Positions 22,527 through 64,000 of a stretch of 64,000 nucleotides of DNA are shown one piece after another. The stretch is from Vicinamibacteria bacterium (GTDB lineage Bacteria; Acidobacteriota; Vicinamibacteria; Marinacidobacterales; Marinacidobacteraceae). The position numbers and the translations under genes are program-made. Every line of letters starts with the position of its first letter. The first letter of the stretch is position 1. The notes under the pieces are model-generated. The model was not told the DNA's origin and did no database searches. It saw only the letters and a list, made by a program, of their open reading frames with translations. The stretch covers positions 80,505 through 144,504 of the forward strand of contig CAXXLQ010000001.1 of the NCBI GenBank assembly GCA_963668695.2, given 5' to 3'.

Positions 22527-22781
22527 CAGCCCGTGGCAAAACCCACGCGGCCCAGTTCTCCCGGTGGGGGCTCGGCTGGCGATCCATCCCGCCCGAACCA
22601 CTCCGCTTCGCTCCGTTCTTCGTTGCGTTTCGGTCGGAATACACCCGGGCCAGTTCTCCCGGTGGGGGCTCCTCCCTCACGCGCCTTGTCGGCCGGGCCC
22701 CCACCGGGAGGACTGGCCCCACCGGGAGAACTGGGCCTCACCGACCTCGGCGCTCACGTGGGTTTCACCACAGGCTGCTAG
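22523..22781. mobile_element. MITE-like modular repeat starting at the ihfB stop codon
   Basis: CTAG-CAGCCCGTGG...CCACAGGCTG-CTAG, with four copies of the 18-bp motif. Confidence 0.8.
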
Positions 22782-22900
22782 CCCGCTGCGGTTCGTGGCC
22801 TCCGGGCCGGTGGGAGAAGGCCGCGGCCTCGGCTGGAGTGCTACGGTCCGGTAAGCGCCGTTTCCAGCCGTCATCGCGGCGCGGCAGTGCTATTGGAAAC

Positions 22901-23160
22901 TGAACAGCCCGTGAATGAAGTCAAGTGGCCCGGTTCTCCCGGTGGGGGCTCGGCCGGCGATGCATCCCGGCTGAACCGCCCCCCCACCGGGAGAACTGGC
23001 GCTTCGCGTCGCTCATCGTTGCGCTTCAGTCGAAATACGCTGGGTATTCCTCCTTCGCGCGCCCTGTCAGCCGGGCCCCCACCGGGAGGACTGGCCCCAC
23101 CGGGAGAACTGGGCCTCCCCGGTCTCGGCCCTCACATCACTCCATCCACGGGCTGTTGAG
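22901..23160. mobile_element. MITE-like modular repeat directly upstream of icmF
   Basis: AACAGCCCGTG...CACGGGCTGTT termini and the shared internal modules. Confidence 0.75.
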
Positions 23161-54910: not shown

Positions 54911-56308
54911 GTGACGAAACCCGGCACCCCCGAACACCCGCTGCGGGTCGCGGTCTTCGGATCCGGCCCGACCGGCTTCTACGCAACCGATCATCTCTTC
55001 AAGGCCGCTGGGGTCACCGTGGAGGTGGACCTCTACGACCGCCTGCCGACCCCCTACGGTCTGGTGCGCGGCGGGGTGGCTCCCGATCACCAGAAGATCA
55101 AGTCGGTGACCCGCGCCTACGAGCGCACCGCGCAGAACCCGCGCTTCCGCTTCTACGGGGGCGTCGAGTTCGGGAGCGACATCCGGCTGGCCGATGTCCG
55201 GCGCCACTACCACGCGGTCCTCTATTGCGTGGGGGCGCAGGTGGACCGGGCCATGCGGATTCCCGGCGAGTCCCTCGGCAGGAGCCACGCGGCGACCGAG
55301 TTCGTGGCCTGGTACAACGGTCACCCGGACTACCGGGATCGGGAGTTCGACCTTTCCCAGGAATCGGTCGCGGTCGTCGGGGTCGGCAATGTGGCAGTGG
55401 ATGTCTGCCGGGTGCTGGCCCGTTCCGTGGACGAGCTGAAAACGACCGACATCGCTGATTACGCGCTGGAGCAGCTCGCGGAGAGCCGGATTCGCGAGAT
55501 CCACATGCTCGGCCGGCGGGGTCCGGCGCAGGCTGCGTTCAGCAATCCCGAGATCAAGGAGCTCGGGGAACTCGCGGGCGCCGACATCCGGGTCTTCGAA
55601 GAAGAAGCGGCGCTTGATGCGGTGAGCCAGGAATGGGTGGATTCCGGCGCCGACAGGTCGGCCCCGAGGAAGGTCGAGATCCTCCAGCAGTACGCCGCCG
55701 AAACACGGTCCGGCAAACTGCGAACGCTGACCGTCCGGTTCCTCGTTTCCCCAGTGGAACTGATTGCCGGCGAAGATGGTGCGGTTACCCGGGTCAAGCT
55801 CGTGAAGAACGAGCTCTACCGCAACGAACGGGGCACGGTCCGCCCGCGCGCCACCGATCATTTCGAGGATCTCGCTGCCGGTCTGGTGTTCCGTTCGGTC
55901 GGCTACCGGGGGGTCGCGCTACCCGACGTGCCGTTCCGCGATGACTGGGGAGTCATCCCGCACGCGGTCGGCCGGGTGCTCGACTCCCCGGACGGGGAGC
56001 ACCAGGAAGGCCAGTACTGCGCCGGTTGGATCAAGCGCGGTCCCACCGGGGTGATCGGCACCAACAAGCCCGACGCCCTGGAGACCGTGCGGGTGCTGCT
56101 CGAGGACGTCGCGGCCGGCAAGCACTGGCACCCGGAATCCCCGTCCGCCGAGTCGGCGGAGCGCTTCGTGGCCGAGCGCGTTCCCACCTACTTCTCGTTC
56201 GCCGACTGGAAGGCGCTGGACGCCCTCGAGGTGGCGCGCGGCAAGGCCGAGGGCCGTCCGCGGGTGAAGTTCGTGAGCGTCGAGGAGATGCAGGCCGCGA
56301 TTCGCTAG
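54911..56308 (+). CDS. Ferredoxin--NADP reductase (FprA/adrenodoxin reductase type)
   Basis: GSGPTGFY, PYGLVRGGVAPDH, GVGNVAVD, GRRGPAQ, GWIKRGPTGVIGTNK. Confidence 0.92.
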   Translation: MTKPGTPEHPLRVAVFGSGPTGFYATDHLFKAAGVTVEVDLYDRLPTPYGLVRGGVAPDHQKIKSVTRAYERTAQNPRFRFYGGVEFGSDIRLADVRRHYHAVLYCVGAQVDRAMRIPGESLGRSHAATEFVAWYNGHPDYRDREFDLSQESVAVVGVGNVAVDVCRVLARSVDELKTTDIADYALEQLAESRIREIHMLGRRGPAQAAFSNPEIKELGELAGADIRVFEEEAALDAVSQEWVDSGADRSAPRKVEILQQYAAETRSGKLRTLTVRFLVSPVELIAGEDGAVTRVKLVKNELYRNERGTVRPRATDHFEDLAAGLVFRSVGYRGVALPDVPFRDDWGVIPHAVGRVLDSPDGEHQEGQYCAGWIKRGPTGVIGTNKPDALETVRVLLEDVAAGKHWHPESPSAESAERFVAERVPTYFSFADWKALDALEVARGKAEGRPRVKFVSVEEMQAAIR

Positions 56309-56389
56309 GCGCCGAGGATCCGTCCGGCAGGGACCGCCGGCCAGTTCTCCCGGTGGACTCTCCTGGAGAATGCAAGGAGGAAGGGAGGG

Positions 56390-56576
56390 TTAACAGCCTG
56401 TGGTGGAACCCGCGTGAGCGCCGAGGCCGGTGAGGCGCCCGGCTGACAAGGCGCGTGAGGGAGGAATACCGGGTGTATTTCGACCGAAACGCAACGCAGA
56501 ACGCAGCGAAGCGGAGTGGTTCAGCCGGGATGGATCGCCGGTTGAACGCCGCGTGGGTTTCGCCACAGGCTGTTAA
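56390..56576. mobile_element. MITE-like repeat nested in the IS110 right end, TTAA at both ends
   Basis: TTAA-CAGCCTGTGG...CCACAGGCTG-TTAA. Confidence 0.8.
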
Positions 56577-56577
56577 G

Positions 56578-57273
56578 TCAGGCGGCGGATTTTGGGCTCC
56601 TGGCGGCGAAGTCCGGGTCGAAGAAGGTGCGGTGTCGCGCCATCGCGCATAACACCCGGAACTGCTGGTCGGCGATGGCGCGATGCCGCCGGGCCGTCGT
56701 CTTCCCCGCGTCCTTCAGCTTCCGGCTGTATGCCTTCACGTCCTCGTCCCAGCGCAACACCCCGCGTGCCAGGAGGTAGGCGGCCTGCTGCAGCGAGTAG
56801 GGCACCGCACGCCGCATCCGGGCCGTGTCGCGCTCTCCGGACTGCACCCGGACGGGGGCCGCCCCGGAGGCCGCTCGCAACCGGCCGTGGTCCCCGGCGC
56901 ACACCGCCTCGAATCCCCAGGCGAACAGCCGCGCCAGCGCCTTGTCTCCCAACCCCTTCCGAGACCGCAGGATGGTGACCGGATCCGGAGCCGTCGCGCC
57001 CGCGCCGCCTCCCACCGCTTCCGTCTCCGACAGCGCATCCAGGAACTGCGTCATCTGCTTCTCCGCACGCGCGATCTCCGCGTTCACAACCTCCAGCAGG
57101 GCCAACGCCGTCCGAATCGTCTCCACCGCCGCGGCGGTGGCCCCGGGCGCCACCGTCAGCGCCTCCTCACGAAACAACGCAACCACCCGGTCCGCGCTGA
57201 TCCGGGTCACCCCGTAGTGCCGCAGCAGCTTCTCCCAGGTGGAGCACCGCACCTTCCGCGCCGTCGCCGGTGT
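56578..57273 (-). pseudogene. IS110 transposase, C-terminal half only (RuvC-like DEDD domain deleted)
   Basis: ILRSRKGLG...SGAAPVRVQSG...RAIAD...AM....FDP matches the IS110 C-terminal domain. There is no N-terminal GxD motif or credible start. Confidence 0.82.
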
Positions 57274-57291
57274 CGAGCGGTCCGCCTTGCC

Positions 57292-57478
57292 GCGATGGCA
57301 GTCAAGCCCTATATTGGTGCTCGATCGGCACAACTCTCCACAGGGTGTCCCATCACGGCCATCCGTCGGGGTACTGGTCCACCACAGGTGCTTGCGGCAC
57401 CGGGGCCTCTTGGTACTCCCGGCGGATCGGCCAACCGAAGTTGATGAAGTAGGAGGCGAAACCGCCTCCTACACAACG
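57292..57478 (-). ncRNA. Putative IS110 bridge RNA
   Basis: 5' hairpin 57449-57472; stem/internal loop/hairpin 57357-57432 (target loop); second loop 57292-57356 (donor loop). Loop sequences match the element's own target and donor junctions. Confidence 0.75.
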
Positions 57479-57681
57479 CCCGTGATCCTATAGGGGGCCT
57501 GAAGACCGGCACTGCCAGCCGAAGGCTGGTGAAAGGCGGAGTGCTGAACGGCGGCAAGCGCGGGGAGTGAGGGGACCGCCGACCTCCGGTCGGCATCGCG
57601 GCCCGCAGGGCCGCGAAACGCGCAGCGGTGATGGGCTTGGTCCGACCGGGCGGCTTCCCGTAGGGGCGCACCCGTCCGCCG

Positions 57682-57994
57682 GAGGAAGAACCACGAGCTG
57701 CCCCGGGTGGCGATCACGTTCGAGTGCTTGCCGATCCATCCCAGGCCAGCCCGTTCCGCGAACGCCTTCTCAAGCAGCGGTCCGTGATCCACGAGGGTCG
57801 GGATGCGCCGGCGCGCGCCCGGCGAGCGCTCGGGCAGCAGGCCGGCTTTGATGGCGCGGGCTTGGGCGAACGCCGCAAGGGCGCGGAGCTTCGAATCCAG
57901 CACCCGGTGGTAGTCCTCGCGAGAACCCGAGACGGAATCCCTCTTCCCGGATCGCGCCCCGCAGCTCTGCCCGCTGTCTCCCGTCGTCGGCCAC
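57682..57994 (-). pseudogene. queG: Epoxyqueuosine reductase remnant
   Basis: N-terminal IREEGFRLGFS is joined out of frame to EDYHRVL...VDHGPLLEKAFAERAGLGWIGKHSNVI...SWFFL, then truncated. Confidence 0.78.
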
Positions 57995-58046
57995 GGCGAC
58001 AGCCTACCGGAGCCCCCCGAGATTTCGAATCAGGGTTTGTCGAATC

Positions 58047-58638
58047 GCTAGAGCGACATGTTCGCCCGGCAGATCCGGCTACTGCGACATGTTGGCGTCC
58101 CGCTGATCCCGGTAGTGCGACATGTTCGCGCGGCAGATCCGGCTAGTGCGACATGTTCGCGTTCCGCCGACCCTGCTATTGCGACATGTTCGCGCGGCAG
58201 ATCCGGCTAGTGCGACATGTTGGCGTCCTGCCGGTCCTGCTAGGCCGACATGTTCGCCCGGCGGAACCGGCTAGTGCGACATGTTGGCGTCCCGCCGATC
58301 CCGCTAGTGCGACATGTACATCCGGCGGAACCGGCTAGTGCGACATGTTGGCGTCCCGCCGATCCCGCTAGTGCGACATGTACATCCGGCGGAACCGGCT
58401 AGTGCGACATGTTGGCGTCCCGCCGATCCCGCTAGTGCGACATGTTCGCCCGGCAGATCCGGCTAGTGCGACATGTTCGCGTTCCGCCGATCCCGCTAGT
58501 GCGACATGTTCGCCCGGCAGATCCGGCTAGTGCGACATGTTGGCGTCCCGCCGATCCCGCTAGTGCGACATGTATATCCGGCGGAACCGGCTAGTGCGAC
58601 ATGTTGGCGTCCCGCCAGTCCTGCTACTGCGACCTGAG
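58047..58638. repeat. Tandem array of 18 units alternating 31 and 33 bp (9 x 64 bp) plus a degenerate 19th core; core GCTAGTGCGACATGT
   Basis: Cores at 58047, 58078, 58111, 58142, 58175, 58206, 58239, 58270, 58303 and so on to 58590, then 58623. Confidence 0.92.
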
Positions 58639-60017: not shown

Positions 60018-60248
60018 ATGAGCCAGCCGCGCGAACCGGTCGTGTCTGCGGGCCATCTCGCCGGGCTCTGCGAGACCTGCTGCCACGCCCGGATCGTGGC
60101 GTCGCGCCGCACCCGTTTCACCCTTTGCGAGCGTTCGTTCTCGGACGCGCGCTATCCCCGCTACCCGCGCCTGCCGGTCCTGACCTGTTCTGGTTTCGTC
60201 GGTGCGTCCGGACGCGAGGGTCCCGAAACAGCCGGTTGTGAAACCTAG
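60018..60248 (+). CDS. Small Cys-rich hypothetical protein
   Basis: G-rich RBS; GLCETCCH...FTLCERS..D.RYPRYPRLPVLTCSGF. Confidence 0.65.
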   Translation: MSQPREPVVSAGHLAGLCETCCHARIVASRRTRFTLCERSFSDARYPRYPRLPVLTCSGFVGASGREGPETAGCET

Positions 60249-60785
60249 GCGGCGTTCGGCCGGCGATCCATCCCGGCGAAACAGCCTGTAATGAAACCCG
60301 CGCGGCGTTCGGCCGGCGATCCATCCCGGCGAAACAGCCTGTAATGAAACTCGCGCGGCGTTCGACCGGCGATCCATCCCGGCGAAACAGCCTGTAATGA
60401 AACTCGCGCGGCGTTCGACCGGCGATCCATCCCGGCGAAACAGCTGAAACTCGCGCGGCGTTCGACCGGCGATCCATCCCGGCTGAACCGCGCGTCGCGT
60501 CGCTCAGCGTTGCGTTGCGTTTCGGTCGAAATACACTCGGTATTCCTCCCTCACGCGCCTTGTCAGCCGGACCCCCACCGGGAGAACTGGGCCTCGCCGG
60601 CCTCGGCGCTCACGCGGGTTCCACCACCGGCTGTTGACCGCGTCGCTGCGTGCCGCTCATCGTTGCGTTTCGGTCGAAATACACCCGGTATTCCTTCCTC
60701 ACGCGCCTTGTCAGCCGGACCCCCACCGGGAGAACTGGGCCTCGCCGGCCTCGGCGCTCACCCGGGTTCCACCACCGGCTGTTAG
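60227..60785. mobile_element. MITE-like modular repeat with tandem 53-bp units
   Basis: Unit GCGGCGTTCG(G/A)CCGGCGATCCATCCCGGCGAAACAGCCTGTAATGAAAC(C/T)CGC repeated 4-5 times; ends CCACCGGCTGTTAG. Confidence 0.8.
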
Positions 60786-63580: not shown

Positions 63581-64000
63581 GCAGCCGGTGGTGGAACCCA
63601 CGCGGCCCAGTTCTCCCGGTGGGGGCTCGCCCGGCGATCCATCCCGGCGAAACAGCCTGTAATGAAACTCGCGCGGCCCAGTTCTCCCGGTGGGGGCTCG
63701 ACCGGCGATCCATCCCGGCGAAACAGCCTGTAATGAAACTCGCGCGGCCCAGTTCTCCCGGTGGGGGCTCGCCCGGCGATCCATCCCGGCCAAACAACCG
63801 GTAGTGAAACCCACGCGGCCCAGTTCTCCCGGTGGGGGCTCGGCCGGCGATCCATCCCGGCTGAACCGCGTCGCTGCGCGCCGCTCATCGTTGCGTTTCG
63901 GTCGGAGTACACCCGGGCCAGTTCTCCCGGTGGGGGCTCCTCCCTCACGCGCCTTGTCAGCCGGACCCCCACCGGGAGAACTGGGCCTCGCCCCCACCGG
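63581..64000. mobile_element. MITE-like modular repeat with four 71-bp units, running off the window end
   Basis: GCAGCCGGTGGTGGAACC start; the same units as 1757-2040. Confidence 0.8.

Follow-up and report, generated by a model that had tools for sequence, protein, structure and literature searches.

A predicted bridge RNA gene in the left end of a probably immobile, CC-core IS110-group element inserted in a REP-like repeat

Results

An IS110-group element interrupts a REP-like repeat

The window, by which we mean the whole 64,000-nucleotide stretch of Vicinamibacteria DNA analysed here, carries on its minus strand an IS110-group element of 1136 bp that spans 57492 to 56357 and lies inside a REP-like repeat of the form ...AGGCCC-CC-ACCGGGAGAACTGG. 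Read on the minus strand from 57500, the left junction is AGGCCCCC|TATAGGATCACGG..., with ...AGGCCCCC|TATAGG occupying 57500-57487. The left target flank AGGCCC (57500-57495) and the left core copy CC (57494-57493), together minus-strand 57493-57500, are followed by the left end of the element (57485-57492, minus strand), the first bases of which, TATAGGAT, constitute the right-donor sequence and include TAGGAT (57490-57485), the -10-like half of a junction promoter. At the other extremity, the right end (56357-56388, minus strand) contains a -35-like TTGCAT (56375-56370) and the left-donor sequence GGAGAGT (56363-56357), and is followed by the right core copy CC (56356-56355) and the right target flank ACCGGGAGAACTGG, which together fill 56341-56356 on the same strand. 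The right junction thus reads, on the minus strand, GGAGAGT|CCACC at 56363-56352, and from 56363 onward GGAGAGT|CCACCGGGAGAACTGG.

The run of C at the left junction consists of five residues (57497-57493), one more than the four counted in the initial annotation; the junction strings given there are otherwise present. Uninterrupted copies of the target repeat elsewhere in the genome read AGGCCCCCACCGGGAGAACTGG, with CCCCC, and the occupied site has CCCCC on the left and CC on the right, which indicates that the insertion duplicated CC. The previously proposed core CC is therefore borne out by the uninterrupted copies.

In the 4.1-Mb genome, the REP-like target 22-mer nnnCCCCCACCGGGAGAACTGG occurs 609+605 times (~1,214) when up to 2 mismatches are allowed, and its reversed control 0 times. 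The nnnCCCCCACCGGGAGAACTGG repeats often stand in tandem arrays with a period of 18, 25 or 71, in the window for example at 1792-2014, 22563-23101 and 63618-63938.

A search of the same genome with a 1171-nt query finds one full twin of the element, at C4:310835-312007. Over more than 4 kb around the element, the window's contig (C1) and G000:C4:309335-313507 are 99.9% identical, and owing to these common flanks the twin is regarded as the same locus, duplicated or assembled twice. The genome has a 'contamination' of 9.3%, so that contig C1 may represent part of C4 a second time, as a redundant strain variant. In the twin, the remnant open reading frame is longer by 2 bases, and a 64-bp tandem repeat (9.2 copies, window 58046-58633) differs in copy number between the C1 locus and the twin. 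A joint from 56353 to 57493 in a DNA run (depth 10.2, with one other letter between) was considered as an empty site or an excision product and rejected: with a differing letter and repeats on either side, it most likely represents a paralogous repeat copy.

A truncated recombinase gene and a mosaic repeat fill the body of the element

The recombinase gene of the window copy is reduced to a remnant at 56578-57276 (minus strand), which comprises the C-terminal 232 codons and the stop codon and retains PF02371 only, as delimited by domain search and by alignment with the sister element L064. The open reading frame at 56578-57333 scores 22 bits for PF02371 and has no PF01548, and the remnant is 76% identical to L064 residues 268-502. 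Relative to L064, an internal deletion of 606 bp (L064 positions 1759-2364), with its junction at 57275-57276 on the minus strand, has taken the ribosome-binding region, the ATG, about 200 codons and the whole DEDD_Tnp_IS110 domain. The remnant reaches 36.8 bits against NF033542, below the cut-off of 140. In the full-length relatives, PF01548 (DEDD) is present in both open reading frames examined; that of genome G009 (420 aa, L054:1788-3050) carries PF01548 and PF02371 and scores 141.6 bits against NF033542, 'IS110 family RNA-guided transposase', vs the cut-off of 140, and the relatives' recombinase matches the IS621 transposase chain 8wt6_A with E = 2.4e-6. The intact DEDD + Tnp recombinase that marks an autonomous IS110 element is thus missing from the window copy. 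The initial annotation had hinted at this in speaking of a full-length cognate transposase, and the window copy is indeed a deletion derivative without the DEDD domain.

A protein query from the same lineage, hereafter lineage A, returns three 5'-truncated remnants from the window's own genome (G000), together with one intact recombinase of another lineage, B (37% identity). In this genome, which is 91.7% complete, no full-length cognate recombinase was detected. The lineage-B recombinase has 415 aa (G000:C4:482375-483622) and belongs to an element with its own RNA at C4:482.1-483.9 kb. The third remnant, C4:792954-793893, has no left end, and its gene is truncated at a different point. This remnant (L003) and a lineage-A remnant in genome G001 (L067) carry different deletions in which the DEDD domain is also gone, and one of the two is also cut into the 3' strand of the donor loop. 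As the remnants in G000 and G001 are without the DEDD domain, lineage A appears to survive in these two genomes only as relics.

Between the stop codon and the right end lies a ~187-bp mosaic repeat of the genome (56389-56577, minus strand); 70 further genome matches fall on this segment of the element only. Members of the same family also occur at window 60224-60783, 1756-2492 and 63601-63861, and the family dominates three RNA libraries (X16 and X17 from one study, X18 from another), with a depth of up to ~2,600 in X16. A hot spot for additional DNA lies past the recombinase stop codon and before the -35-like hexamer (L054, L056, L063, L064 and the window): it holds a few nt in G009, the 187-bp repeat in the window, ~190 nt of unrelated sequence in G014 and ~450 nt with GCGCTTTCCAC repeats in G004.

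The left end encodes a predicted bridge RNA

Upstream of the remnant, the minus-strand segment 57478-57289 is identified, with strong support, as a bridge RNA gene located in the left end of the element. The predicted RNA consists of a 5' hairpin, a target-binding module and a donor-binding module, in this order. The 5' stem-loop (57449-57472, minus strand) is a perfect 10-bp helix, GTAGGAGGCG/CGCCTCCTAC, closed by a GTTT loop; it is seen in the sequence and by RNAfold, and 8/10 of its pairs show two-sided changes across relatives. The target-binding module (57361-57427, minus strand) has an interrupted outer stem that pairs 57427-57413 with 57374-57361. Its loop carries the left target guide AGGCCCC (57408-57402, minus strand) on the 5' strand and the right target guide GGTGG (57383-57379, minus strand) on the 3' strand, on either side of a GGTGC/GCACC hairpin (57401-57387, minus strand). 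The donor-binding module (57289-57359, minus strand) is enclosed by the outer stem GCCGTGATGG/CCATCGCGGC, in which 57359-57350 pairs with 57298-57289. In its loop, the left donor guide GGAGAGT (57339-57333, minus strand), on the 5' strand, matches the right end of the element, and the right donor guide TATAGG (57313-57308, minus strand) is complementary to CC+TATA of the left end, the two being separated by a GTGC/GCAC hairpin (57331-57317, minus strand). In both the target loop and the donor loop, GG sits 8-9 nt past GCAC. The 10-bp hairpin, the two loops, their stems and guide strings and this GG spacing had all been recognised in the initial annotation and were recovered here at the same positions.

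The earlier reading had taken the whole of AGGCCCC as the left target flank. The match at 57408-57402 stands, and only AGGCCC is flank, the last C belonging to the core. With five C at the junction and the core CC at 57494-57493, the left target guide covers the flank and a single core base, the first, after which it continues with G. In the donor loop, similarly, GGAGAGT is followed by U and then G. The left guides of both loops therefore stop one base short of the hairpin, and the 1-nt difference in register between them that had been noted disappears once the C-run is counted as five. More generally, the right guides hold GG opposite CC, and the left guides of lineage A match the first core base only (C and then G in the target loop, U or C and then G in the donor loop). 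In lineage D, described below, the left target guide matches both core bases.

Folding with RNAfold, the check suggested initially, yields both the 5' hairpin and the module of the target loop; the z-score is -2.83, and 3/200 shuffles fold as well. An alternative in which GGCC (57432-57429) pairs with GGCC (57360-57357), instead of the latter lengthening the donor stem, was set aside; the RNAalifold version of the donor stem was kept because A1 position 174/239 shows U.G, U-A and C-G. The search of Rfam 15 over 55500-58500, with E up to 10, gave two unrelated weak matches, one of them on the opposite strand just downstream of the RNA, and none on the minus-strand RNA.

The guide matches of the window copy are 7, 5, 7 and 6 nt long, in keeping with the initial caveat that they are short (5-7 nt). 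Among all 12-mers of the locus, those that match at least as well make up a share of 0.020 (left target guide), 0.118 (right target guide), 0.018 (left donor guide) and 0.027 (right donor guide). Taken singly, these matches are weak; jointly, they are unlikely to be fortuitous, and the decisive evidence is the covariation found in relatives.

Compensatory changes back the predicted fold

Pairing was evaluated on a 27-sequence alignment (A2) made by, and fitted to, a covariance model. On this alignment 86.2% of the cells are paired, vs 31.5-52.1% with the partners slid, and 29/42 pairs show two-sided changes; the observed values are reached by 0/500 shuffles, and these pairing figures flatter the model, given the kinship of the sequences and an alignment fitted to the structure. 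Both outer stems are also given independently by RNAalifold on a plain MAFFT alignment. The compensatory changes thus support the predicted bridge RNA fold. In the donor hairpin, the differences between the window (GTGC/GCAC) and G004 (GCGC/GCGC) are likewise compensatory.

Guides vary with flanks and ends within lineage A

Full-length elements with the same left end are present in three genomes of the same genus, with 3 copies in G004 (84-94% identity across the left end), 5 in G009, and 6 intact copies and one interrupted copy in G014. The RNA occupies positions ~20-230 of these full-length elements and is followed within ~25 nt by the ATG.

The left target guide of lineage A exists in four variants, each matching its own flank: AGGCCCC in the window and in G004 copies a and b, GAGCCCC in G009 and G014, AGGGCCC in the interrupted G014 copy, and CGGCCCC in G004 copy c. 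The variants track sub-variants of the REP-like repeat, and a version of the target repeat with the GAGCCC flank reads GAGCCC-CC-ACCGGGAG. Among the 17 lineage-A copies, guide and flank agree at 7/7 positions in 14, at 6/7 in two and at 5/7 in the degenerate G001 remnant. The left donor guide tracks the right end in a similar manner, being GGAGAGT in the window (7 nt), TGGAGAGT in G004 (8 nt) and CGTGGAAAGT in G014 (10 nt). The G009 left donor guide places a single G opposite A, a pair that would amount to a G.T wobble. The initial annotation had proposed covariation among homologues as the test of its reading; guides do vary with their own flanks and ends among these relatives.

Other lineages keep the scaffold and carry different guides

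In three to four further lineages the scaffold is kept and the guides are different, each set agreeing with its own flanks and ends. The nearly invariant scaffold common to the lineages reads GCC[GA]ATCCGCCGGGAG ... CGACGGAT ... GGCCG.GATGG ... TATAGG ... C.TC.CGG. Lineage B, with the core TC, carries the guides ACCGGAGG, CGCCGGA and GGTAGAAGG for the target GCCGACCGGAGG-TC-CGGCG; lineage D carries GGCGTTCC, GCTTGG and AGAGAGTC for the target GGCGTT-CC-AAGC; and lineage E carries ATGGAGCGC, GAGUCCGG, GTGAAGA and TTATAGG for the target ATGGAGCG-CC-GGACTC. In the relatives, matches are 6-9 nt long in the target loop and up to 10 nt in the donor loop.

Cognate and non-cognate pairings were compared for the left target, right target and left donor guides of lineages A (window), B, D and E. 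The longest match has a mean of 7.5 for cognate pairings (n=12) vs 3.9 for non-cognate pairings (n=36, maximum 7), where the lineages are kin and their covariation counts are not independent. The right donor guide is uninformative in this comparison, because all of those left ends start with TATA. Junctions are defined independently of the guides in lineage A, by empty sites, and at the left end of lineage F (below) only; the flanks of B, D and E are themselves repeats, and their junctions were placed with the guides and the conserved TATA start in view, which makes the agreement in these three lineages partly circular. For lineage B, a left end at TTTTCTGGGCCC was rejected and the start moved 26 bp upstream, because the shared flank GCCGACCGGAGGTC precedes TATACC in 10/14 copies examined. 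Lineages B and D divide one repeat between them (L068/L074; L080/L085), B inserting at GCCGACCGGAGG-TC-CGGCGTTCC and D at GGCGTT-CC-AAGC, 7 bp further.

The covariance model, built from 14 left ends, finds matches in 16/55 genomes of the order and in 4/151 genomes drawn evenly from the phylum, G000 being included in both counts; it gives no further match in the rest of the window. Lineage F, found by the covariance model only (47-50 bits), resides in a genome (G037) from another family of the same order, and its recombinase is 27% identical to the window remnant. Here the right end, ...GCGTGGGGAGT|CC, is identical to the left donor guide GTGGGGAGT. CC+ATTCC, to which the right target guide GGAATGG is complementary, forms the right flank in 3/5 copies, the others having CCATCCC and CCATATC. 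The right donor guide is GTACAGG, not TATAGG, and predicted a left end CC|TGTAC; CCTGTAC occurs once in each of the 5 lineage-F copies, within a few bases of where identity between copies starts, ~1.1 kb upstream of the RNA. The G037 copies have varied left flanks, which agree with the left target guide near the core only (4-8 of 9, by eye). At the lineage-F loci of G037 (L116-L128), the bridge RNA thus lies ~1.1 kb inside the left end and not at the end, so that the two are separated by ~1 kb of other sequence that moves with the element.

A split promoter is predicted across the joined ends

The pattern TTGnnn-N16/17-TAnnnT extends across the junction of right end, core and left end (RE-core-LE) in 10/10 elements examined at the sequence level. 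TAnnnT begins at base 3 of the left end, and the core lies between the promoter halves. In the window copy the halves are TTGCAT (56375-56370, right end) and TAGGAT (57490-57485, left end), 17 nt apart once joined. A promoter formed at the RE-LE junction, as in IS621, is accordingly predicted from these motifs. In a simple scan for sigma-70-like promoters, the integrated locus showed none ahead of the RNA on the minus strand, and its one plus-strand match, lying antisense inside the donor loop, is taken as chance.

The sequencing runs that hold the stretch include sponge metagenome runs and runs labelled as metatranscriptome. Contigs from RNA libraries of one study cover part of the RNA region, an X16 contig over 57331-57560 with 1 difference and an X17 variant over 57331-57511 with 10 differences. 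As the contigs carry neither strand nor ends and the X16 contig runs upstream of the element, they are not counted as a discrete RNA or as transcription. RNA-library cover is absent over 56601-57116 and is not used as evidence.

Discussion

Comparison with known IS110 systems

As set out in Durrant 2024 (PMC11208160), the IS621 bridge RNA is ordered as hairpin, target loop and donor loop; the 5' strands of the loops match the left target or donor, the 3' strands are complementary to the core and the right target or donor, and all four guides include the core. The IS621 bridge RNA is also treated in Hiraizumi et al. 2024 (PMC11208158). The RNA described here resembles that of IS621 in several respects: it is encoded in the left end, upstream of the DEDD recombinase of the full-length relatives; it combines a 5' stem-loop, a target-binding loop and a donor-binding loop under the same strand rule; and its promoter is split, with the -35 in the right end and the -10 in the left end. 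It departs from IS621, which has the core CT, in having the core CC here and TC in lineage B, and in a scaffold sequence unrelated enough to give no match in Rfam 15; the window copy, moreover, is without a DEDD domain. Unlike the IS621 guides, the left guides of lineage A match the first core base only, with G, not C, at the second position.

Insertion into repetitive extragenic sequences is a trait held in common with Pseudomonas putida ISPpu9 (PMC12288879) and ISPpu10 (bioRxiv 10.64898/2026.03.19.712850), and Durrant 2024 (PMC11208160) refers to earlier work on REP targeting; the host group, repeat and guides of ISPpu9 and ISPpu10 differ from those described above. The ISPpu9 report (PMC12288879) also describes an extra small-RNA module downstream of the transposase gene and elsewhere in the genome, which resembles the 187-bp repeat and is offered as a lead only. 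Selection of the target by a non-coding RNA encoded in the insertion sequence is equally the principle of the seekRNA of IS1111/IS110 (Siddiquee et al. 2024, PMC11187229). In the IS1111 group, according to Durrant 2024 (PMC11208160), the RNA lies in the right end and the element has subterminal inverted repeats, whereas the RNA here lies in the left end.

A probable immobile relic with an intact RNA gene

On these grounds, the locus is very probably a bridge RNA gene of an IS110-group element with a CC core and a repeat as target, in a copy that is now an immobile relic with its RNA gene and ends intact. The initial bridge RNA interpretation is sustained by a geometry equal to the published one and by the covariation among relatives. 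The relic reading of the window copy follows from the deletion of the start codon and the DEDD domain, the lack of a cognate recombinase among those found in the genome, and the single locus. By analogy with IS621, excision of an intact element to a circle would join the right-end TTGCAT to the left-end TAGGAT; the joined promoter of the circle would drive the bridge RNA, which would in turn span the circle junction and a copy of the repeat for the DEDD recombinase.

It is very improbable that the structured region serves solely as a cis-acting leader for recombinase mRNA, controlling its translation or stability, with the matches due to chance or to insertion into repeats. This reading would account for the position of the region immediately ahead of the recombinase start codon in full-length relatives, and it could draw on the brevity of each window match, at only 5-7 nt. 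A leader would not, however, explain why the loop strands change with flanks and ends across six lineages in which the stems stay constant, nor why the strand rule is always the published one, nor does it predict that GTACAGG should foretell the left end CCTGTAC ~1.1 kb away.

The relic status of the window copy can be questioned from another side: the deleted element might not be dead, and might be a non-autonomous, bridge-RNA-bearing element mobilised in trans by a related IS110 recombinase, for example that of lineage B. The preservation of the RNA gene, both ends, the four guide matches and both promoter halves is consistent with this, as are the compensatory nature of the donor-hairpin differences between the window and G004, the near-invariance of scaffold segments between lineages A and B, the intact 415-aa lineage-B recombinase in the same genome, and the cover of the region by RNA-library contigs (which give no strand and no ends). 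Mobility of this kind is nevertheless unlikely, since the element occupies one locus only, the copy at C4:310835-312007 being the same locus (>4 kb of shared flanks), and since the third remnant has no left end. The lineage-B enzyme, besides having its own RNA, is only 37% identical over the comparable part, and the remnant open reading frames of the C4 copies are split over two frames, which fits decay. We likewise give a small chance to the view that the element, though it has lost its recombinase, is retained as a functional orphan bridge RNA that the co-resident lineage-B recombinase employs in trans. Were that so, it would be a MITE-like, RNA-guided hitch-hiker able to recombine copies of a repeat present ~1,200 times and to drive rearrangements. 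With a similarly small chance, left guides that read the first core base alone would imply a core-recognition rule unlike that of IS621.

A natural series of bridge RNAs

The window copy cannot move on its own, and the finding opens no new question. Bridge RNAs are already established as a family-wide property of IS110 elements, to which the window RNA adds a further member: in Durrant 2024 (PMC11208160), bridge RNAs are predicted in 85.7% of IS110 elements, and junction promoters are predicted too. The CC-core elements, or the scaffold of the window, may already be among the supplementary bridge RNA predictions of that study. In conclusion, the present set adds a natural series of bridge RNAs from high-G+C genomes in which one scaffold carries reprogrammed guides. 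The series comprises four variants of the left target guide that track sub-variants of a single repeat, together with lineages that have other targets and, in one case, a TC core. It documents how guides have been reprogrammed in nature and could be a source of orthologues for engineering.
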